A stretch of 64,000 nt of DNA, taken from contig OZ253555.1 in assembly GCA_965262725.1 (NCBI GenBank), forward strand, positions 2,464,001 through 2,528,000, read 5' to 3'. Under the pieces are notes generated by a model. The model was not told the DNA's origin and searched no databases. It was given only the letters and a program-made list of their open reading frames with translations. This stretch comes from Dehalococcoidia bacterium (GTDB lineage Bacteria > Chloroflexota > Dehalococcoidia > UBA2979). This document shows, one piece after another, positions 3,757 to 14,074 of the stretch; the stretch's first letter is position 1, and each line of letters starts with the position of its first letter. The position numbers and the translations under genes were made by a program.

Positions 3757-5337
3757 ATGGCCTACCGGGAGGTACACGGGGTGGAGATCCAGGAGATCAT
3801 TCGACGCTGGCAGGCGGGGCTCAGCCAGCGCCGCATCGCCAGCGGGATGGGGTTGTCGCGTCAGACGGTCCGCCGCTACATCGACGCGGCCGAAGCGGCC
3901 GGCCTCACACCTGACGGTCCCGAGCCGAGTGAGGAGCAGCTCGCCGCGCTGGCGACGCTGAGCCTCTCCGGCCCGCGGCAGGTCGAGGCGCCGAGCGAAG
4001 AGCTGCTCTCGCCCTGGGCGGAGCAGATCGAGCGCTGGCTTGAGACCGACCGCCTGCAACTGACGCGCATCCAGGAGCTCCTCGCCGGACGAGGCTGCGA
4101 GGTCTCCTACACCACGCTGCGGCGTTTCATCCGGCGCCGCGGCTGGCGCCACCGGCTGCCGTCGACCGTGCGCATGGACGACGGGCCGCCGGGCGAGGTG
4201 GCGGAGATGGACTTCGGCCGCCTCGGCTTCATCCGGGACCCCGAGAGCGGCCGCCGGCGCGCGGTGTGGGCGCTGGTCGTCGTCTGGCGCTACTCCCGCC
4301 ACTGCTTTGTGTGGCCCACCACCAGCCAGAAGCTGGACGCTGTGATCGAGGGCCTGGAGGAGGCCTGGGCCTTCTTCGGGGGAGTGCCCCGCTACCTCGT
4401 CATCGATAACTTCCCGGCCGCCGTCGCCGGGGCCGACGCGCTGCACCCGCGCTTCACGCGGGGCTTCCTCGAGTACGCCCGCCACCGCGGCTTCATCACC
4501 GACCCCGCGCGCGTGCGTCATCCCCGCGACAAGCCGCGCGTCGAGCGCAGCATCCCCTACGTGCGCGAGCGCCTCTTCAAGGGCGGCGACTTCCGGGACG
4601 TCGTCGACCTGCGCTCCGCCGCCCGCAGCTGGTGCCTGGAGGTGGCGGGACAGCGCATCCACGGCACGACCCGCCGCCGGCCGCTCGAGGTCTTCCGGGA
4701 GGAGGAGCTCCCTCTCCTCGCTCCCTGGGACGGCGAGCCCTACGAGGTCCCCGACTGGCGGACCGCCACGGTCCATCCCGACCACCACATCGCCTGCCAG
4801 TACGCGCTGTACTCGGTGCCGTCCACGGCCTGCCCGCCCCGCCAGAAGGTCGAGGTGCAGCTCGGCTCGAAGCTGGTGCGCATCTACCACCGCGGTCAGC
4901 TCATCAAGGTCCACCCGCGCCAGCGCCGGGGCGGCCGCGCCACCGACCCGAACGACTACCCGGCCGAGCTCACCCCCTACACCAGGCGGGCGCCCGACTG
5001 GATACAGCGCCGCGCCGCCGAGCTGGGGGAGGCCGTGGGCGCCTACGCCGAGCGTCTCTTCGAGGGCTCCCTGCCCTGGGCGAAGCTCCGGCAGGGCCAC
5101 AAGCTGCTGCGCCTCGCCGAGCGCTACTCCCCGGACCGCCTCGACGCCGCCTGCCGCCGCGCGCTCGAGGTCGACCTCATCGACGTGCGCCGCCTCGAGC
5201 GCATCCTCGTCGAGGCCCTCGACCAGGAGAGCACCCCAGACCAGCCCGAGCTGCCGCCGCCTCCGGGGCGCTTCGCCCACTCGGGCTCCGTCTTCGCCCA
5301 GTCCCGCGCGCAGACCCCGACAGGAGCACCACGATGA
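3757..5337 (+). CDS. istA: IS21 transposase IstA
   Basis: HTH, PGEVAEMDFG, VIDNF, RDKPRVER (DDE/rve). Confidence 0.92.
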   Translation: MAYREVHGVEIQEIIRRWQAGLSQRRIASGMGLSRQTVRRYIDAAEAAGLTPDGPEPSEEQLAALATLSLSGPRQVEAPSEELLSPWAEQIERWLETDRLQLTRIQELLAGRGCEVSYTTLRRFIRRRGWRHRLPSTVRMDDGPPGEVAEMDFGRLGFIRDPESGRRRAVWALVVVWRYSRHCFVWPTTSQKLDAVIEGLEEAWAFFGGVPRYLVIDNFPAAVAGADALHPRFTRGFLEYARHRGFITDPARVRHPRDKPRVERSIPYVRERLFKGGDFRDVVDLRSAARSWCLEVAGQRIHGTTRRRPLEVFREEELPLLAPWDGEPYEVPDWRTATVHPDHHIACQYALYSVPSTACPPRQKVEVQLGSKLVRIYHRGQLIKVHPRQRRGGRATDPNDYPAELTPYTRRAPDWIQRRAAELGEAVGAYAERLFEGSLPWAKLRQGHKLLRLAERYSPDRLDAACRRALEVDLIDVRRLERILVEALDQESTPDQPELPPPPGRFAHSGSVFAQSRAQTPTGAPR

Positions 5338-6107
5338 CCGCCACCACCTCAGACCTCCGCCCGCTGCTCAAGCGCCTCAAGCTCGGCCGTATGCTCGACA
5401 CCCTGCCCGAGCGCATCGCCCTCGCGCGGCGCGACCACCTCGACTACGCGGACTTCCTGCAGATCCTGCTCGTCGACGAGGTGAGCCGCCGCGACCACGG
5501 GCGGTTGGAGCTGCGCCTGCGCCAGGCCGGCTTCGAGCAGCTCTGCCGCCTCGAGGACTTCGACTGGGCGGCCGCCATCCGGCTCGACCGCCGCCTGCTC
5601 GACGCCGCCTTCTCGCTGCACTTCCTCGACCGCCGCGAGCACGTCCTGCTCGTCGGCCCCGTCGGCGTCGGCAAGAGCTTCTTAGCCCAGGCGCTCGGCT
5701 ACTCAGCCGTCCGCTCCGGACGCAGCGTCCGCTTCGCCCCGGCCGACCACTACTTCCGCGAGATGGCGCAGGCCCGCGTCGACCACTCGGCCGAGAAGGT
5801 CTTCCGAAGCTTCCTCGCGCCCGACCTGCTCATCCTCGACGACCTCGGGCTCCATCGCCTCAGCGCGCAGCAGTCCATCGACCTCTACGAGCTGGTCATC
5901 GGGCGCCACCGCAGCTCGAGCTTCGTCATCACCTCGAACCGCGCCGTGGAGGAATGGCTGGGTCTCTTCGACGACCCGATCCTCGGCAACAGCGCCCTCG
6001 ACCGCCTCGCGAACGCCAGCTACCAGATCGTGATCGAGGGCGATAGCTACCGCCAGCGGCTCTCGCCGCACCGCGCCCTGCTCGAGGCGCAGACGGGAGG
6101 TGATTGA
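5334..6107 (+). CDS. istB: IS21 helper ATPase IstB
   Basis: ATGA overlap with istA. Walker A GPVGVGKS, LLILDDLG, ITSN, SALDRL. Confidence 0.92.
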   Translation: MTATTSDLRPLLKRLKLGRMLDTLPERIALARRDHLDYADFLQILLVDEVSRRDHGRLELRLRQAGFEQLCRLEDFDWAAAIRLDRRLLDAAFSLHFLDRREHVLLVGPVGVGKSFLAQALGYSAVRSGRSVRFAPADHYFREMAQARVDHSAEKVFRSFLAPDLLILDDLGLHRLSAQQSIDLYELVIGRHRSSSFVITSNRAVEEWLGLFDDPILGNSALDRLANASYQIVIEGDSYRQRLSPHRALLEAQTGGD

Positions 6108-6384
6108 CGCGCTAGACGCTCACTGATATCAAGCCGCCTACCGGCGTCCCGGGTGGTCTAATCTCGAATCCACCGAACGAAGCTTGACGAGGCGGGGTGC
6201 CGGGCTGCCGGAGAGTTCGACGGGTGTGTCGGCGTTCGCCGGGCGGCGCCGGGGGCGGGCCGGAGCCAGGAGCCGTCGCTCAGCACCGCTCGGGGGCGCT
6301 GAGGGTGCGGGCGCGAGGGTGCGCGAGGCGTGGGCGGGCATGCTGGCGCGAGCTTCGGCTCCGGTTCGGCGCTGTGAGCGGGCG

Positions 6385-7710
6385 TCAGGTCGGGAGCGGT
6401 ATCGCCCGTAGTCGCGCGAGCGCGGCTGCCAGCTGCCCGGCCCAGGGCCAGCGCTTCGGGAGGTGCAGGGTCCACCGCCGGGCAGAGTGGGTGAGCCGTC
6501 CGGCGAGAGAGAAGTAGCGCCGCCTGAGCGTCCTGGTCGTCACGATCCCCTCGCCGAGCCCGAGGCGTGCCGTCCAGCGGGCGAGGTTGTGCGCGATCAC
6601 CTGCACCGCGAGCCACGCCGCGTTCGCGGCGAAGCGGCCCGAGGGGAGATGGTTCAACCCGACGCCGTACTTGAGGTCGCGGATCGCGTTCTCGATCTCG
6701 GCGTGACGGCGATGGTCGGCCTCCAGCTCCATCATCTCCCCCGCGCGATCGGTGATGAAGGCGTGGTAACTGTAGTTCACGAAGAGCGCGAGCTGTGAGC
6801 CGGGCGTCGGCTTGACGCGCCGCACGATGAGCCGCACCGCGGTGGCGTCCCTCGTGTGCTGGAACGGCGTGTAGGTCGTCTCGGCGACAGCGGCGCCGTC
6901 GTCCTGCCAGTACGGGATCGGCGTCCAGTCCTCTTCCGGTATCGCCTCGATCAGCCGGCGTACGTTCGGCTGCTGGCGAATGGTGATGGAGAAGCGGACA
7001 TCCTGCTTGCGACAGACGGCGACGACAGCGTGGTTGTAGAAGCCGCTGTCGGCGCGCACCGTGAGCTGCCCGCTCGCCCCGGCGTCGCGCACCCGGCCCA
7101 CCGTCTCACGCAGGAAGTGGGCGGCCCCCCGAGCGGTGTTGGCACGGCCCCCGCGCAGCCGGGCCATCAGCACCTCACCCGTCCCGGCCGCCACCGCGAG
7201 CAGCGGGTGATAGCCGCGCACGCCCGTGTAGCCGTGGTGCCGGGCGCCCTCTTTCGCCAGTCCGTAGGTCTCGCAGAGCGTCGAGTCGAGGTCGATCGTG
7301 AACGGTGCCGCGCCGGGTCCCGCCCCGGCCGCCCAACTGCGGGCCAGCAACTCGCGGCTGACGCGGTCGAGCTGGCGGACGTGGCCCCAGCGGAAGCTGC
7401 GCAGGAACGTCCCGAGGGTGGACGGCGCCTTCACCGTGCAGCCGAGCACGCGCCCGGCGCCGCCTGAGCGCATGGCATCGGCGTCATCGATGCAGTCGCC
7501 GCCCGCGAGCGCCGAGGCGATGAGAGTCATCAGCTTGTCGCCGACGTTCGCCCGCCCCGCTGCGTCACCGAGGTCGAGGTGGGCGTCTGCCAGTTCACGG
7601 AGGCCGAGCCGGCCAGCGAGCGTGGCCGGGAGCAGCAGGCCCGCGTGGTCCACGAGGCGGTCGTCGTCGAAGGCGATGTGTATCCGGTCGGGGCTGCTCG
7701 TTGCTAACAT
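6385..7710 (-). CDS. IS1380-family transposase
   Basis: HAGLLL, IDLDST, GYHPLLA, RADSGFY, HAEIENAIRDLK, PSGRFAANAAW motifs. Confidence 0.92.
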   Translation of the reverse strand: MLATSSPDRIHIAFDDDRLVDHAGLLLPATLAGRLGLRELADAHLDLGDAAGRANVGDKLMTLIASALAGGDCIDDADAMRSGGAGRVLGCTVKAPSTLGTFLRSFRWGHVRQLDRVSRELLARSWAAGAGPGAAPFTIDLDSTLCETYGLAKEGARHHGYTGVRGYHPLLAVAAGTGEVLMARLRGGRANTARGAAHFLRETVGRVRDAGASGQLTVRADSGFYNHAVVAVCRKQDVRFSITIRQQPNVRRLIEAIPEEDWTPIPYWQDDGAAVAETTYTPFQHTRDATAVRLIVRRVKPTPGSQLALFVNYSYHAFITDRAGEMMELEADHRRHAEIENAIRDLKYGVGLNHLPSGRFAANAAWLAVQVIAHNLARWTARLGLGEGIVTTRTLRRRYFSLAGRLTHSARRWTLHLPKRWPWAGQLAAALARLRAIPLPT

Positions 7711-7811
7711 CGAATGGGTGCTCCCTGTGGCTGTGACGTGATTCGGTCAAAAACCATTGTCCCAGCTACAGCGGAGCACCCAACCCCAGCCGCTCGCGCA
7801 CTCTTCTTCGG

Positions 7812-9728
7812 TTCGCGGTAGGGATGCCGGTTGCCCGGCACCCCCCGCACAGATCCGGACGTGCCCTCTCGGGCATCCGGCTCCTACCTCAAGTGCGTGA
7901 CGGCAAATCGCTCCGCAGGCCACGGGTGAAGGATGGAGATTCGGGGCCAGTGTTTCTGGCACAGGGCAAGGATGCGCTCCCACGTGAAACGGTCGCGCTG
8001 CGACCGCCGTCGGAGAACGCGCAGCCAGAGCCGCTTCACGAAACGAACAAACTGCGTGAGCGCCGGCGAGCTGGTCGGCACCGCGTAGTAGCCAAGCCAC
8101 CCACGCAGTACCCGCCCCAGCCACTGCCCCGTCGTCACGGGGTTGTCGTGCATGCGCCGCCACAACTCGGCCTTGATGGCCTTCAGCGTCCGGCGCATCC
8201 GCTTCGCAACGGGCTTGCGCCCCAGCCCGAATCTCCCGTCGCGTCGGGTCCGGCAGTAGTGCGTCATGCCGAGAAAGTCGAACGTCTCCGGTCGGCCCTC
8301 CCCGCGCTTCCGCCTGTTCGCCAGCGCGAACCTGCCGAACTCAAGTAGACGGGTCTTCTCCGGGTGCAGCTCCAGCCCGTAGGCCGCGAACCGCTCCCGG
8401 AGTGCCTCCATGAACCGCACCGCATCGCTGCGGTGCTGGAACCCCAGGACGAAGTCATCGGCATACCGCACGATGTACGCCTCGCCCCGGACCTCCCGCG
8501 GTCGCCACTCGCGCGCAAACCAGTCGTCGAGCACGTTGTGCAGGTACACGTTCGCAAGCAGCGGCGATATCGGCGCCCCCTGCGGCATCCCCCGCACGAA
8601 ATCGACTTCCGGCTCCGCGTCCATGACGCCGACGCTCAGCCACTTTCGTATCAGGCGCAACACCCGCTGGTCCCCGATGCGCATCTCCAGAAACGACATC
8701 AGCCGCCCCCGGTCGATGCTGCCGAAGAACTCCCGGATGTCCACCTCGACAATCCAGCTGACCTTGCGCCGTTCGACCGCGTAGGCCAGTGCGTCCAGCG
8801 CGTCATGCGCCGAACGCCCCGGCCTGAAGCCATGCGAGAAGCCGTAGTAGCCCGACTCGTAAATCGGGTTCAAAAGATTGTCCACCACCGCCCGCTGAAC
8901 GATCTTGTCCTCCAGCGAGACGATACCGAGCGGCCGTATTCCCCCGTCCGGCTTGGGTATCTCTACCCGCCTGACGGGCTTCGCCCGGTACGCTCCACGG
9001 TGTACGCGGCCATGCAGGTCGAGCAATCGCTCGTCCAGCCCGTCCCCGTATTCTCGCCACCTCACCCCGTCCACGCCCGGAGCCGCATCCCGCTTCAACG
9101 CGAGATACGCCTCCCGCAGCGCCTCCGGCGTGATGTGGTGCAAGAGCGCGGTGAGTTTCTCTCCCGGCTTCCGTTCCACGAACTGCCGTATCCTCTCCGC
9201 TCCGGGTGACACCGCACCCCGACTCTGCGTCCGGACCGTGCCGGTGCTTTGAGGATTCCTCTCGGTTGGGGCCCTTTGCTCCAGCGACTCCGCCGGGGCT
9301 CGCGCCCCCTTGTTCGCCGCCTTCATCGCTCGTACGGCCCCATCAGACTGCTGCGCATCGTGCATCATCGGCTACGGTTTACGTCCCTTCCCGACGCGGT
9401 CCCGGCGTACGACTCGTCGGGACAACGCGCAGCTCTCCCAAGTCCCGGCGATAGACGTGTGTGCGTGCATGGGGTCTTCGACACCGTGGGGCCCGACCAC
9501 GACTCGCCAGTAGCGCCGTCGCCGGTATTGCCTTCGACCAATCCAAGAGCCTCGGCACCCCAAATGGCCCTTTCGATGCTCATTAGCCCCGCCCGCACAC
9601 CCCGCTGCCGACGCTTCACAAGCCGCCTCGCGACGACCCGCGCACGGCTCGCGGAATGACATGAGTGGCTAGCTCTTTGCCATAGAGGACTTCCACCTCC
9701 TGCCTACTCGCCAGTTAGCCTGGCGCTC
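7812..9728 (-). mobile_element. Group II intron, copy 1 (1917 bp, probably class E-like)
   Basis: RT ORF followed by domain V (GAGCCGGATGC...GCACGTCCGGATC) and domain VI. Boundaries set by comparison with copy 2 and by restoring the IS1380 IR. Confidence 0.9.
7884..9368 (-). CDS. ltrA: Group II intron reverse transcriptase/maturase, no endonuclease domain
   Basis: IPKPDGGIRPLGI, SHGFRPGRS, PQGAPISPLLAN, RYADD, domain X. True start may be ~150 nt downstream (GTG, VSPGAERI). Confidence 0.93.
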   Translation of the reverse strand: MMHDAQQSDGAVRAMKAANKGARAPAESLEQRAPTERNPQSTGTVRTQSRGAVSPGAERIRQFVERKPGEKLTALLHHITPEALREAYLALKRDAAPGVDGVRWREYGDGLDERLLDLHGRVHRGAYRAKPVRRVEIPKPDGGIRPLGIVSLEDKIVQRAVVDNLLNPIYESGYYGFSHGFRPGRSAHDALDALAYAVERRKVSWIVEVDIREFFGSIDRGRLMSFLEMRIGDQRVLRLIRKWLSVGVMDAEPEVDFVRGMPQGAPISPLLANVYLHNVLDDWFAREWRPREVRGEAYIVRYADDFVLGFQHRSDAVRFMEALRERFAAYGLELHPEKTRLLEFGRFALANRRKRGEGRPETFDFLGMTHYCRTRRDGRFGLGRKPVAKRMRRTLKAIKAELWRRMHDNPVTTGQWLGRVLRGWLGYYAVPTSSPALTQFVRFVKRLWLRVLRRRSQRDRFTWERILALCQKHWPRISILHPWPAERFAVTHLR

Positions 9729-9789
9729 TGGATCAGGGCTAATGACCGTGGCGACGCGTGGCTCAATGACCCTGGCGATCGACACTCTC

Positions 9790-9955
9790 CGAGCAGCACG
9801 ACGAATGGGCCGTCGGGCGGCGCTACATGACGATGATGACGCTGCTCTCCCCGCCGGGGAGTGAGCTCACGTCAGGCAAGGAGGTGCTGCTGCAGGCTGC
9901 CGGCTAACAAATGATAAGGATGGTGCACTGTGACACCACTTGCCGGGACGTGACC
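9790..9955 (+). pseudogene. IS256 remnant part 2 with right IR
   Basis: EQHDEWAVGRRYMT...QAAG* and GACACCACTTGCCGGGACGTGACC, as in 59110-59277. Confidence 0.85.
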
Positions 9956-10070
9956 GCCGCCTGAGCCTCGGGCGCATCGCCACCTGCCAGCTCACCTCTG
10001 ACCCCGCGTGCTCCGGGCGCTTCTCCGCTCCCCGGTAGGCGGCATCGCCCCACACCGGGGCCCGCGGACT
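9956..10070 (-). pseudogene. IS5-family transposase internal fragment
   Basis: VWGDAAYRGAEKRPE...WQVAMRP resembles the IS5 (subgroup IS5) DDE region. Confidence 0.6.
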
Positions 10071-10148
10071 TGCGACCTGGGCAGCGGCATTGCTATGCTG
10101 CCTAATACAAGGCACATAGCTAGATGGTAATGCGACAGGGTACTGCTC

Positions 10149-10382
10149 ATGATCGAGTCTGGAATCACCTCGAAGGGACAGACCACATTGCCACGAGCAG
10201 TGCGCGATGCGCTCTGCCTGCACGCTGGTGATCGGGTGCGCTACCTCATCCAGGATGGGGAAGTCAGGATCCTGCCGGTACGCCCCATCGCACGGCTCTT
10301 TGGCGTACTACGGCATGACGGCCCGGCCGCGACCCTGGACGACATGGAACGCGCCGTCGTCGATGGGGCCACCGACGCGTGA
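10149..10382 (+). CDS. AbrB/MazE-family antitoxin
   Basis: ITSKGQTTLPRAVRDAL swapped-hairpin motif. Overlaps the PIN gene by GTGA. Confidence 0.88.
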   Translation: MIESGITSKGQTTLPRAVRDALCLHAGDRVRYLIQDGEVRILPVRPIARLFGVLRHDGPAATLDDMERAVVDGATDA

Positions 10383-10780
10383 TTGCCGTCGACACGAACG
10401 TCGTCGTGCGATATCTCGTGGCCGACCATGCTGAGCAGGCAGATGCAGCTCGGGCATTACTGGAGCGGTTGACGCCTGAGCGCCCAGGCTTCATCTGCCG
10501 CGAGGTCGCACTTGAGGTTGTCTGGGTACTGGAGCGGGCCTACGGGTTCACGCGCGTCCAGATCGCAGACGTTCTCATGGAGTTGATCGCCACCGACAGC
10601 ATTGTTGTGGAGGCCGCGGACGACATGGCCCGTGCGGTCTATGCCTATCGCCAGGGTGGTGTCGGCTTCGCGGACCTCATGATCCTCTCAGCGGCTGAGC
10701 GGGAGGGAGCTGCACCCCTCCACACCTTCGACCGCCAGCTTGCGCGGATGAACACGGCGGTCCTTGTGGAGAAGCGGTAG
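10379..10780 (+). CDS. vapC: VapC-family PIN toxin
   Basis: MIAVDTNVVVRYL...E...GFADLMI...HTFD. Confidence 0.88.
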   Translation: MIAVDTNVVVRYLVADHAEQADAARALLERLTPERPGFICREVALEVVWVLERAYGFTRVQIADVLMELIATDSIVVEAADDMARAVYAYRQGGVGFADLMILSAAEREGAAPLHTFDRQLARMNTAVLVEKR

Positions 10781-10899
10781 GAGCGCACCCAGACCGACCG
10801 ATGCCCAGAGGCCGTGGCCGGTCGTAGGTGCCGCCTGCAGAGACCGTCTCCCTGCTTGTGACACCACTTCTCGGGACGCTACTCGACGCGCTCACGACC

Positions 10900-11042
10900 C
10901 TGAGATCATCAGCGACCAGCTCTACCGGAGGCTGAACATGCTATTCCGTCGCAAGGGCTGGCATCGCGACGAACCGGTCGAGTACAAGCGGGATGAGTCA
11001 CCAACACTGCTGAGGCGGCTCGTGCTGCGGGCACGGACATGA
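10900..11042 (+). pseudogene. Possible C-terminal remnant of an ImmA/IrrE-family protein
   Basis: IISDQLYRRLNMLFRRKGWHRDEP resembles C-termini of HTH-ImmA proteins. No start context. Confidence 0.35.
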
Positions 11043-11192
11043 TGGGGTGGGATGGGGAACGACGGCCGAGGCCCCGGCTAGGTGTCTGGGGGCTGTACGC
11101 GTGACCGCCTTGACAAAAATCGTGGGGACAGGAGGGTAGCGCCACGTTCCGGCGCCGGGATGGCGTGGTCGTGCGAGTCTCGGGAGGAACCG

Positions 11193-11780
11193 ATGGCTGT
11201 GGAACTCACTCTGACCCAGCTGGTGCGCAACGGCACGATGTCTCCAGAGATGGCGGACACGCTCATCGTGGCCGCCCGGTCGCGGTCCTCGCTTCTGTTC
11301 TTCGCCGGGCCGCGGCTCGCGGGCAAGACGACGACGCTGCGCGCGACCCTCGCGTACGTGCCCGAGGGCACGCCGGTCCACGAGGTCTCGGCCGACGAGC
11401 CGGACCTCGGCATCCCGGCGCAGCCGGACGGCGGCTACCTGCTCGTGCACGAGTTCGCGGAGACACCGGTCTTCCCGACCTACATCTGGGGCGAGCCGGT
11501 GCGGCGCGTGTTCGATGCGCTGGCGACCGGGGGCCTCTCGCTGGCGGCGGCCACGCACGCCGACTCCCTGGAGGAGGCCTTCGACAAGATCGCGGCGAAC
11601 AGCGTGCCGGACGAGCAGGCCGGGCTGATCGACTACGCCGTCCACATCCGCAGCCTCGGCGACTGGCGTGAGCCGACCCGGCGCGTGGTCGCGGCGCTGT
11701 ACCAGCTGCGCCCCGACCGCGAGGCGAGGCTGCTGCATCTCTGGGACGAGGCGACCAACCGCTTCGAAGTGATGACGTAG
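11193..11780 (+). CDS. Small stand-alone P-loop ATPase (VirB11/TadA C-terminal-domain-like)
   Basis: GGAGG RBS. LVRNGTMS, Walker A GPRLAGKTT, LLVHE, ATHADS. Confidence 0.7.
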   Translation: MAVELTLTQLVRNGTMSPEMADTLIVAARSRSSLLFFAGPRLAGKTTTLRATLAYVPEGTPVHEVSADEPDLGIPAQPDGGYLLVHEFAETPVFPTYIWGEPVRRVFDALATGGLSLAAATHADSLEEAFDKIAANSVPDEQAGLIDYAVHIRSLGDWREPTRRVVAALYQLRPDREARLLHLWDEATNRFEVMT

Positions 11781-11992
11781 ATGATGACGCGAGCACTCCA
11801 CCACTTTATGTGGAGTTCCGAGCCTGGCTACTACAGCCCAGGACCTCCAGGCTCGCGGGACGGACCTACGGTAGTTCCGGCGACCGCGGGTCGCGCCCCG
11901 CTCTACGCAGCCCGTGCCCGTGGCAGCGACACGACGAGCGCGACGCCCGCCCCGGTGCCGCCTGCTGCACCTGGCCGTTAAGCCCGAATCCA

Positions 11993-13909
11993 GAGCGCCA
12001 GGCTAACTGGCGAGTAGGCAGGAGGTGGAAGTCCTCTATGGCAAAGAGCTAGCCACTCATGTCATTCCGCGAGCCGTGCGCGGGTCGTCGCGAGGCGGCT
12101 TGTGAAGCGTCGGCAGCGGGGTGTGCGGGCGGGGCTAATGAGCATCGAAAGGGCCATTTGGGGTGCCGAGGCTCTTGGATTGGTCGAAGGCAATACCGGC
12201 GACGGCGCTACTGGCGAGTCGTGGTCGGGCCCCACGGTGTCGAAGACCCCATGCACGCACACACGTCTATCGCCGGGACTTGGGAGAGCTGCGCGTTGTC
12301 CCGACGAGTCGTACGCCGGGACCGCGTCGGGAAGGGACGTAAACCGTAGCCGATGATGCACGATGCGCAGCAGTCTGATGGGGCCGTACGAGCGATGAAG
12401 GCGGCGAACAAGGGGGCGCGAGCCCCGGCGGAGTCGCTGGAGCAAAGGGCCCCAACCGAGAGGAATCCTCAAAGCACCGGCACGGTCCGGACGCAGAGTC
12501 GGGGTGCGGTGTCACCCGGAGCGGAGAGGATACGGCAGTTCGTGGAACGGAAGCCGGGAGAGAAACTCACCGCGCTCTTGCACCACATCACGCCGGAGGC
12601 GCTGCGGGAGGCGTATCTCGCGTTGAAGCGGGATGCGGCTCCGGGCGTGGACGGGGTGAGGTGGCGAGAATACGGGGACGGGCTGGACGAGCGATTGCTC
12701 GACCTGCATGGCCGCGTACACCGTGGAGCGTACCGGGCGAAGCCCGTCAGGCGGGTAGAGATACCCAAGCCGGACGGGGGAATACGGCCGCTCGGTATCG
12801 TCTCGCTGGAGGACAAGATCGTTCAGCGGGCGGTGGTGGACAATCTTTTGAACCCGATTTACGAGTCGGGCTACTACGGCTTCTCGCATGGCTTCAGGCC
12901 GGGGCGTTCGGCGCATGACGCGCTGGACGCACTGGCCTACGCGGTCGAACGGCGCAAGGTCAGCTGGATTGTCGAGGTGGACATCCGGGAGTTCTTCGGC
13001 AGCATCGACCGGGGGCGGCTGATGTCGTTTCTGGAGATGCGCATCGGGGACCAGCGGGTGTTGCGCCTGATACGAAAGTGGCTGAGCGTCGGCGTCATGG
13101 ACGCGGAGCCGGAAGTCGATTTCGTGCGGGGGATGCCGCAGGGGGCGCCGATATCGCCGCTGCTTGCGAACGTGTACCTGCACAACGTGCTCGACGACTG
13201 GTTTGCGCGCGAGTGGCGACCGCGGGAGGTCCGGGGCGAGGCGTACATCGTGCGGTATGCCGATGACTTCGTCCTGGGGTTCCAGCACCGCAGCGATGCG
13301 GTGCGGTTCATGGAGGCACTCCGGGAGCGGTTCGCGGCCTACGGGCTGGAGCTGCACCCGGAGAAGACCCGTCTACTTGAGTTCGGCAGGTTCGCGCTGG
13401 CGAACAGGCGGAAGCGCGGGGAGGGCCGACCGGAAACGTTCGACTTTCTCGGCATGACGCACTACTGCCGGACCCGACGCGACGGGAGATTCGGGCTGGG
13501 GCGCAAGCCCGTTGCGAAGCGGATGCGCCGGACGCTGAAGGCCATCAAGGCCGAGTTGTGGCGGCGCATGCACGACAACCCCGTGACGACGGGGCAGTGG
13601 CTGGGGCGGGTACTGCGTGGGTGGCTTGGCTACTACGCGGTGCCGACCAGCTCGCCGGCGCTCACGCAGTTTGTTCGTGTCGTGAAGCGGCTCTGGCTGC
13701 GCGTTCTCCGACGGCGGTCGCAGCGCGACCGTTTCACGTGGGAGCGCATCCTTGCCCTGTGCCAGAAACACTGGCCCCGAATCTCCATCCTTCACCCGTG
13801 GCCTGCGGAGCGATTTGCCGTCACGCACTTGAGGTAGGAGCCGGATGCCCGAGAGGGCACGTCCGGATCTGTGCGGGGGGTGCCGGGCAACCGGCATCCC
13901 TACCGCGAA
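11993..13909 (+). mobile_element. Group II intron, copy 2 (1917 bp), inverted relative to copy 1
   Basis: Near-identical to 7812..9728. Flanks AGCCCGAATCCA | CCGATCG. Confidence 0.9.
12353..13837 (+). CDS. ltrA: Group II intron reverse transcriptase/maturase
   Basis: Same protein as copy 1 except F>V (RFVKR vs RVVKR). YADD motif. Confidence 0.93.
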   Translation: MMHDAQQSDGAVRAMKAANKGARAPAESLEQRAPTERNPQSTGTVRTQSRGAVSPGAERIRQFVERKPGEKLTALLHHITPEALREAYLALKRDAAPGVDGVRWREYGDGLDERLLDLHGRVHRGAYRAKPVRRVEIPKPDGGIRPLGIVSLEDKIVQRAVVDNLLNPIYESGYYGFSHGFRPGRSAHDALDALAYAVERRKVSWIVEVDIREFFGSIDRGRLMSFLEMRIGDQRVLRLIRKWLSVGVMDAEPEVDFVRGMPQGAPISPLLANVYLHNVLDDWFAREWRPREVRGEAYIVRYADDFVLGFQHRSDAVRFMEALRERFAAYGLELHPEKTRLLEFGRFALANRRKRGEGRPETFDFLGMTHYCRTRRDGRFGLGRKPVAKRMRRTLKAIKAELWRRMHDNPVTTGQWLGRVLRGWLGYYAVPTSSPALTQFVRVVKRLWLRVLRRRSQRDRFTWERILALCQKHWPRISILHPWPAERFAVTHLR

Positions 13910-14074
13910 CCGATCGACGCCTGTAGCGGCTGCACCTCCGGGGAAACAGGTTCAGCGGCTGCATCCCATGGGGATTGCGGTGTGTCCTTCTCAGGCGCGC
14001 TCGCGATAGCGACTGTGAGCAGTTCCGCCTGCCCATCTGCGACGGAGCCAGGGCGGCCGCGTGGACGCAGGCAA

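Follow-up and report, generated by a model that had tools for sequence, protein, structure and literature searches.

Organization of the locus

The window analyzed here, a stretch of 64,000 nucleotides from a Dehalococcoidia bacterium (assembly GCA_965262725.1, contig OZ253555.1, positions 2,464,001 to 2,528,000 of the forward strand), is part of one 3.67-Mb contig and carries two copies of a group II intron, one of which interrupts an insertion sequence (IS) of the IS1380 family in its left terminal inverted repeat. A repeat search of the window found one inverted repeat pair of 1933 nt (7808–9740 versus 11981–13913), whose arms correspond to the two intron copies of 1917 nt each. Copy 1 lies on the minus strand at 7812–9728 and has an intact open reading frame (ORF) at 7884–9368 (minus strand); copy 2 lies on the plus strand at 11993–13909. 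Only two differences were found between them.

The IS1380-family element spans 6163–9738 and measures 1659 bp when the intron is subtracted. Its transposase of 441 amino acids is encoded on the minus strand (6385–7710) and matched PF13701 with 198.6 bits and NF033539 with 338 bits (cut-off 180); the closest plasmid homologues of this protein are annotated as IS1380 family transposases. The ends of the element read CCCTGATCCACCGAAG on the left and CTCGAATCCACCGAAC on the right (also given as CCCTGATCCACCGAA and CTCGAATCCACCGAA). Terminal inverted repeats and a short target site duplication (TSD), which are expected of the IS1380 family, are both present. These data are in agreement with an earlier note on this DNA, made from the sequence alone, which had assigned the host element to the IS1380 family.

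The left inverted repeat is divided by copy 1. Its outer 10 bp (CCCTGATCCA; 9729–9738, minus strand) contain the intron-binding site IBS1 (GATCCA) and a part of IBS2, and its inner part (CCGAAGAAGAGTGCG...; 7782–7811, minus strand) forms the 3′ exon. The right inverted repeat (CTCGAATCCA^CCGAACGAAGC...; 6163–6192, plus strand) is uninterrupted, and its potential homing site at 6172/6173 is empty. The two TSD copies of 5 bp are located at 6158–6162 (CTAAT on the plus strand) and at 9739–9743 of the plus strand (the same 5 bp, ATTAG on the minus strand). The last base of the left copy, G, occupies position −11 of the occupied site, counted from the point of insertion, and the right copy, read inward from the right end, gives T at −11 of the potential homing site.

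Characteristics of the group II intron

The earlier note had identified the repeated element as a group II intron, and the covariance models supported this identification. The full Rfam model RF02005 (group-II-D1D4-6) matched each copy with 170 bits (gathering score 49). Domains V and VI (D5/D6; 13836–13909, plus strand, in copy 2) were matched by RF00029 in each arm with 39.9 bits (gathering score 40; E = 7.8e-6; match 13836–13910 in copy 2), and the alignment contains GAGCCG...CGGAUC and CCUACCGC.

The intron boundaries were set by comparing occupied with empty IS ends across the genome. Empty sites read ...ATCCA CCGAA..., and occupied sites read ...ATCCA GAGCG...GCGAA CCGAA.... This comparison placed the junctions at ...ATCCA^GAGCG...GCGAA^CCGA, which are the cut points quoted previously for the motif broken by both copies. 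The termini GAGCG and ...GCGAA (GAA) deviate from the consensus GUGYG and AY.

The intron-encoded reverse transcriptase/maturase consists of 494 amino acids (12353–13837, plus strand, in copy 2), so that 432 nt of the intron lie outside the ORF. The protein matched RVT_1 (2e-36) and TIGR04416 (326.9 bits, cut-off 300; residues 82–455 of 494), and the match to GIIM was weak (0.0077). No HNH domain was detected in the same Pfam search extended to E ≤ 10, and just 39 residues remain C-terminal of the maturase match, which indicates a protein without an endonuclease domain, as the earlier note had proposed.

Genome-wide census of target sites

To define the target, intron copies were located in the whole genome by BLAST and their junctions were extracted. 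Near-identical copies provided 14 5′ junctions, belonging to seven full-length introns, three split at nt 418–420, two split near nt 858–887, and two 5′ fragments; one extra 3′ fragment had no 5′ junction. The motif C[CT]C[TG][AG]ATCCA (CYCN-RATCCA) preceded the intron at all 14 junctions. Nine of these lie in left ends, four in right ends, and one in a solo end, so that 13 of the 14 fall in bona fide IS ends. A second IS sub-family, approximately 82% identical to the first, is represented among them by its left and its right end, and the right-type end, empty in the window, is intron-occupied at three other main-type IS copies.

The genome also contains 108 empty RATCCA^CCG sites, of which 30 have the IS-end motif and 78 lack it, compared with 14 of 14 junctions that have it (Fisher p = 1.3e-7). 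Outside IS ends, none of the 78 RATCCA^CCG sites in the whole genome was occupied by the intron. No copy with an unrelated target was found among the 14 junctions, and the specialization on the ends of one IS family that had been postulated from the two window copies was thus extended to the whole genome.

All seven full-length copies have an intact ORF and show 1–7 differences per 1917 nt, while their host IS copies are 82–100% identical among themselves. The flanks differ past about −15 at all occupied sites. Near-identical introns in unlike flanks and diverged host ISs fit repeated, recent, site-specific insertion and not spread as a passenger. According to the passenger explanation, the intron entered an IS1380 end once, long ago, and the composite of IS and intron was then copied by transposition or duplication, with no site-specific retrohoming. 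Composite transposition is formally possible, as the intron lies within the IS boundaries and occupied elements retain matching 5-bp TSDs, which were seen by eye in 12 of the 13 IS copies with both ends tabulated in the end census. We consider this explanation very unlikely, because left, right, and solo ends and two IS sub-families of about 82% identity are occupied by introns that differ at no more than 7 of 1917 nt, and because the same intron stands in either orientation with respect to the transposase and is present in IS lineages that have diverged.

An alternative route, in which homologous recombination or gene conversion would carry the intron DNA from one IS copy to another with no RNA intermediate, was also considered. 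Many near-identical IS and intron copies are available for such exchange, and a chimeric intron in the sister-genus genome G008 (described below) shows that introns recombine. The homology on the 5′ side, however, comprises just 10 bp of the IS followed by unique flank, and right ends, the 82% IS variant, and the solo end are occupied as well, although their interiors are unlike. Recombination of this kind is therefore most unlikely as the route of spread, and repeated site-specific insertion remains the preferred explanation.

The base composition immediately outside the IS differed between occupied and empty ends. Since the intron cuts 10 bp inside the inverted repeat, −11 and the positions further outward are host DNA, contributed by the target duplication. 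G was present at −11 in 13 of 14 occupied ends compared with 13 of 25 bona fide IS ends that lack the intron (Fisher p = 0.013), an enrichment outside the IS that would not be expected of a passenger. By comparison, A at −12 (14/14 occupied versus 22/25 empty; Fisher p = 0.54) and T at −13 (7/14 versus 12/25; Fisher p = 1.0) were equally common in both groups. Left-type ends were also more frequent among occupied ends (9/13) than among empty ones (8/25; Fisher p = 0.042).

At genome positions 2029223–2029247, two IS1380 left ends stand head to head with 5 bp (CTTAT) between them, one intron-occupied and the other empty. This arrangement may represent an insertion beside an existing end or the relic of a junction between two inverted repeats.

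Pairing between the intron and its target

The motif TGGATT (12176–12181, plus strand) had been proposed as the exon-binding site EBS1. In the Rfam alignment it falls in the terminal loop (12174–12181) of the hairpin GGCT-CTTGGATT-GGTC, and its pairing with (A/G)ATCCA comprises 6 bp at all 14 sites. Related introns have other loops that are complementary to their own exons: a relative with 81% identity in domain I (D1), present in three copies in the genome, combines the loop CCCATT with the exon AATGGG, and a lineage of G008 with 85% identity combines CTCGCA with TGCGGG.

Covariation between loops and exons was analyzed in relatives of the intron. A scan of genome contigs with the conserved 5′ 18-mer gave at least 80 loci; together with loci from G003 and G008 and from the studied genome, 88 of 103 introns could be parsed, giving 44 lineages from which the studied intron was excluded. 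The longest paired run between loop and exon served as the statistic, and exons were shuffled among lineages 2000 times. For the EBS1 loop against −7 to −1, the mean run was 5.20 compared with 3.16 after shuffling, a value reached in none of the 2000 shuffles. Both the loop position and the covariation thus confirmed the proposed EBS1/IBS1 pairing.

The assignment of EBS2 had to be revised. The earlier candidate, GGGCTAAT (12132–12139, plus strand; also written GGGCUAAU), would pair with up to 8 nt (−15 to −8) and would reach 5 nt into the AT-rich TSD. Complementarity extends over 8 nt at the window site of copy 1 and over runs of 7 nt at two other occupied sites, and all 14 occupied ends have the A at −12 that this pairing uses. 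The same motif, however, stands directly 5′ of a helix and is conserved throughout the family, with its core GcuAU in the Rfam consensus irrespective of the target. Against −18 to −7 it showed no covariation in the 44 lineages (mean run 3.39 versus 3.36 shuffled; 839 of 2000 shuffles reached the observed value). The bases at −12 and −13, as shown above, do not distinguish occupied from empty ends, and the sister-genus copy reads CTATT at this position yet occupies the same target. It is thus unlikely that this motif is EBS2. The motif is probably structural; we take it, as a guess, to be an element resembling a tetraloop receptor.

An asymmetric internal loop of 11 nt, AAAGGGCCATT (12148–12158, plus strand), between two helices of the Rfam model behaved differently from GGGCTAAT. 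Its mean run was 4.77 compared with 4.12 after shuffling, and its 8-nt core, which matches the length of GGGCTAAT, gave 4.27 compared with 3.52; in both cases none of the 2000 shuffles reached the observed value. In the 81% lineage, the internal loop reads GATGC and the exon reads GCATC at −12 to −8. Since the internal loop covaries with the exon and the GGGCTAAT position does not, EBS2 is most likely the (A)GGGC at 12150–12154, predicted to pair with GCCC(T) at −11 to −7. This pairing would comprise 5 pairs with GCCCT at left ends, and at right ends (GCTCG) 4 pairs between GGGC and GCTC, including one G-T wobble. The enrichment of G at −11 and the higher occupancy of left-type ends are in accordance with this EBS2 and not with GGGCTAAT.

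This assignment also bears on the empty right end of the window (CTAAT/CTCGAATCCA^CCGAAC; 6158–6178), which had been attributed to a poor match to EBS2. The right end is indeed the poorer target, but the mismatch concerns the internal-loop EBS2 and not GGGCTAAT: because the 5-bp duplication reads CTAAT from the right side and not ATTAG, T stands at −11, which would explain why the site is empty.

Copy 2 in a solo IS end

Copy 2 has no IS around it, and its site had previously been described as an orphan IS1380-like end. The two sites read ATTAG/CCCTGATCCA^CCGAAG for copy 1 and TTAAG/CCCGAATCCA^CCGATC for copy 2. The 5′ exon of copy 2 corresponds to the outer 10 bp of an IS end (CCCGAATCCA; 11983–11992, plus strand), preceded by G at 11982 (position −11), and the inner part (CCGATCGACGCCTG) follows the intron at 13910–13923 (plus strand) without continuing into the interior of an IS. 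Local alignment to four IS ends detected no IS interior past +20 of this site, with only chance matches of 7–9 nt, and a location inside a full or truncated IS body was ruled out by this lack of interior similarity.

The orthologous IS in G008 has a right end, CCCGAATCCA^CCGATCGAAGCTTG, that matches the window sequence CCCGAATCCA^CCGATCGACGCCTG at 21 of 24 compared bases; it consists of the same 10-mer as the 5′ exon of copy 2 followed by CCGATCGA. Two further solo ends, both empty, were found in the genome near 3,193,457 and 664,870, and the former carries C at −11 and has CCGATCGACGC in common with the window site. From the orthologous right end and the additional solo copies, it is concluded by sequence comparison that copy 2 occupies a solo IS1380-type end and not a random look-alike. 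One intron of G008 with an identical EBS1 loop is likewise located in TTAG/CCCGAATCCA.

Strength of the interpretation

Taken together, the sequence data make it very probable that the repeated element is a mobile intron of the Rfam D1D4-6 type, active now or until recently, with a small ribozyme and an endonuclease-less protein, whose natural site is the first 10–15 bp of both IS1380 inverted repeats.

Several observations weigh against this interpretation. The D5/D6 match is 0.1 bit below the Rfam gathering score, and the 5′ end is GAGCG instead of the consensus GUGYG. The latter terminus is common to several relatives from other phyla, and this recurrence suggests that it is a lineage variant rather than a sign of decay. 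The proposed EBS2 pairing comprises just 4–5 bp, and at one of the occupied ends position −11 is C. Conversely, 13 ends with G at −11 are empty, and occupancy is far below saturation. The thermodynamic (minimum-free-energy) fold of the D1 segment was no better than those of shuffled sequences (z = −0.43) and was unlike the Rfam structure, so that the loop assignments are based on covariation and the covariance model. Among 401 sampled genomes of the class, the EBS1 hairpin was detected in just two, namely the studied genome (14 copies) and G008 (one copy), and neither of two metagenome scans contained it.

Replication orientation provided a further point of this kind. With dnaA at 0.478 Mb taken as the origin and the terminus placed near 2.51 Mb by the peak of the cumulative GC skew, co-orientation with the fork was observed for 10 of 14 occupied sites (binomial p = 0.09) compared with 11 of 25 empty ones (Fisher p = 0.18), which is a weak bias for an endonuclease-less intron. 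G at −11 together with co-orientation was found in 9 of 14 occupied versus 4 of 25 empty ends (p = 0.004), a combination picked post hoc. All four counter-oriented copies are located in a flat-skew, IS-rich region at 1.8–2.55 Mb that includes the window. The orientation data are compatible with a model of lagging-strand priming.

Relatives and nested elements

A DNA search of 41 relatives gave long matches in G003 and G008 only, mostly to other intron lineages with other targets. One locus of G008 (L053; contig C1, approximately 2448994–2450811) contains a chimeric intron, which shares 95% identity with the IS-end intron over its first 473 nt, whereas the remainder with the 3′ exon belongs to the 85% lineage. 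This chimera is evidence of recombination between intron lineages.

Among the loci listed (L058–L137), introns related to this type come from many phyla, including Rhodothermales, Acidobacteriota, and Alphaproteobacteria. Many of the listed relatives are inserted directly after an ATG or a few bases past an AGGAG-like motif, which suggests that insertion at translation starts is a habit of the family.

The IS1380 element is also the target of a second intron lineage, identical to the first at 81% in D1 as noted above. This intron occupies the same spot in three other IS copies (genome positions 1921199, 1951737, and 2020542; loci L024, L029, and L030). It matched RF02005 with 166 bits, its EBS1 CCCATT pairs with AATGGG, and it is approximately 2.6–2.75 kb long, with D5/D6 present. 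It has no reverse transcriptase ORF and bears an IS110-family transposase on the opposite strand. In the window, the corresponding target (5′ exon ...CATCGAATGGG^; 7701–7718, plus strand; site 7718/7719) lies antisense to the transposase gene, 8 nt upstream of its ATG; it has A in place of G at −12 and is empty.

A 1551-bp IS110-family element (PF01548 and PF02371) interrupts three intron copies, each in a different IS end, at one and the same position, nt 418–420 (GGCGAACAAG^AAGGGGGCGCGAGCC); a diverged relative of the intron carries it at the homologous position. The four copies are located on contig C1 of the studied genome at 337678–339228, 3305833–3307383, 3505961–3507511, and 1954818–1956368 (loci L019, L018, L020, and L030, respectively). 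This element looks like a site-specific, intron-targeting element that forms a third layer of nesting. In addition, the two copies split near nt 858–887 (1521916–1526027 and 1875230–1878479; loci L013–L016) are interrupted by another IS, which encodes a 354-aa DDE_Tnp_1/DUF772 transposase and is present in at least six copies in the genome.

Other elements surround the introns in the window. The right end of the IS1380 element is adjoined by an IS21-type pair at 3757–6107, consisting of an istA-like gene (rve, Mu-transpos_C_2) and an istB-like gene (IstB_IS21, 178.9 bits). Many copies of IstB-like ATPases were matched by the dnaA-family search, which indicates that IS21 elements are very abundant in the genome. 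Between the two intron copies, a PIN-domain (VapC-like) ORF (10379–10780) and a small upstream ORF (together 10149–10780) probably constitute a toxin-antitoxin pair.

Proposed mechanism and significance

In the proposed mechanism, the spliced intron RNA, in complex with its reverse transcriptase/maturase, would reverse-splice into DNA between ...RATCCA and CCG.... EBS1 (UGGAUU, in the hairpin loop) would pair with IBS1 at −6 to −1, and the short EBS2 ((A)GGGC, in the internal loop) would pair with −11 to −7 or −8. As the IS begins at −10, the final EBS2 pair would take the last base of the 5-bp target duplication, and only an end with G as the last TSD base would be a good target. A requirement for G at −11 would also account for elements, such as the one in the window, that carry the intron at one end and are empty at the other. 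With no endonuclease available, the priming of cDNA synthesis would take place at replication forks, by analogy with RmInt1 and RmInt2 of Sinorhizobium; the present data give only a weak sign of this step. The repeat is divided 10 bp from its tip by the insertion, and the affected end would probably no longer serve in transposition unless splicing removes the intron from a transcript.

It may be suggested, tentatively, that the site is composite, with the base at −11 supplied by the TSD, and that the choice of insertion site by the IS decides which end is invadable, in a system layered with the IS110-family element and the second, ORF-less intron. If intron insertion disables IS ends, a self-limiting hierarchy of parasites on parasites would govern the expansion of IS1380 in this genome.

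With its 14 insertions and 25 empty sites, this one genome provides a natural target-selection experiment, which locates EBS2 and implicates a flanking base outside the IS. The census could also be useful for annotating nested elements of this kind, on which IS and intron callers fail, and for understanding the restraint of transposons by retroelements. The results of most value are the census, the contribution of the base at −11, and the further elements nested in the system; they do not represent a new kind of biology.

Comparison with known systems

No association between a group II intron and IS1380 was apparent in a full-text literature search judged on titles and the starts of abstracts. 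Small bacterial introns of groups IIE and IIF measure 450–700 nt without the protein gene and carry EBS1 and EBS2 in stem d of domain I, and a role of EBS2 in homing rather than in splicing was proposed for them (Nagy et al., 2013; PMC3753933). The present intron resembles them in its small ribozyme (432 nt) and in having EBS1 and the probable EBS2 in domain I stem d.

RmInt1 of S. meliloti is likewise endonuclease-less and has an IS, ISRm2011-2 of the IS630 family, as its natural site. Its insertion was reported to block the spread of ISRm2011-2, and its homing shows a preference for the lagging-strand template (PMC5894124). In that account, the site of RmInt1 is given just as within ISRm2011-2, and inverted repeats are named as the target for RmInt2 alone.

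The closest parallel is RmInt2, an endonuclease-less class D intron of S. meliloti GR4, all seven copies of which lie inside ISRm17 inverted repeats (PMC4615759; reviewed in PMC5894124). Retrohoming of RmInt2 into both ISRm17 repeats, its bias to the lagging-strand template, and a relaxed EBS2 pairing of 4–5 bp were demonstrated experimentally (PMC4615759). Both introns lack an endonuclease, reside in several copies inside the inverted repeats of one IS, and have a short EBS2 pairing of 4–5 bp; both target the two ends of the IS, so that one site always faces each replication direction. RmInt2 belongs to class D and encodes a 419-aa protein, whereas the present intron encodes 494 aa and has an RNA of the Rfam D1D4-6 type with 432 nt outside the ORF. 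The host of RmInt2, ISRm17, is a member of the ISNCY family (PMC10194956), whereas the present host belongs to the IS1380 family, and the mobility of RmInt2 was established by experiment, whereas that of the present intron is deduced from sequence. The strategy of homing into IS repeats has thus already been published for RmInt2 and ISRm17, and what is new here is the intron lineage, the IS family, and the host group.

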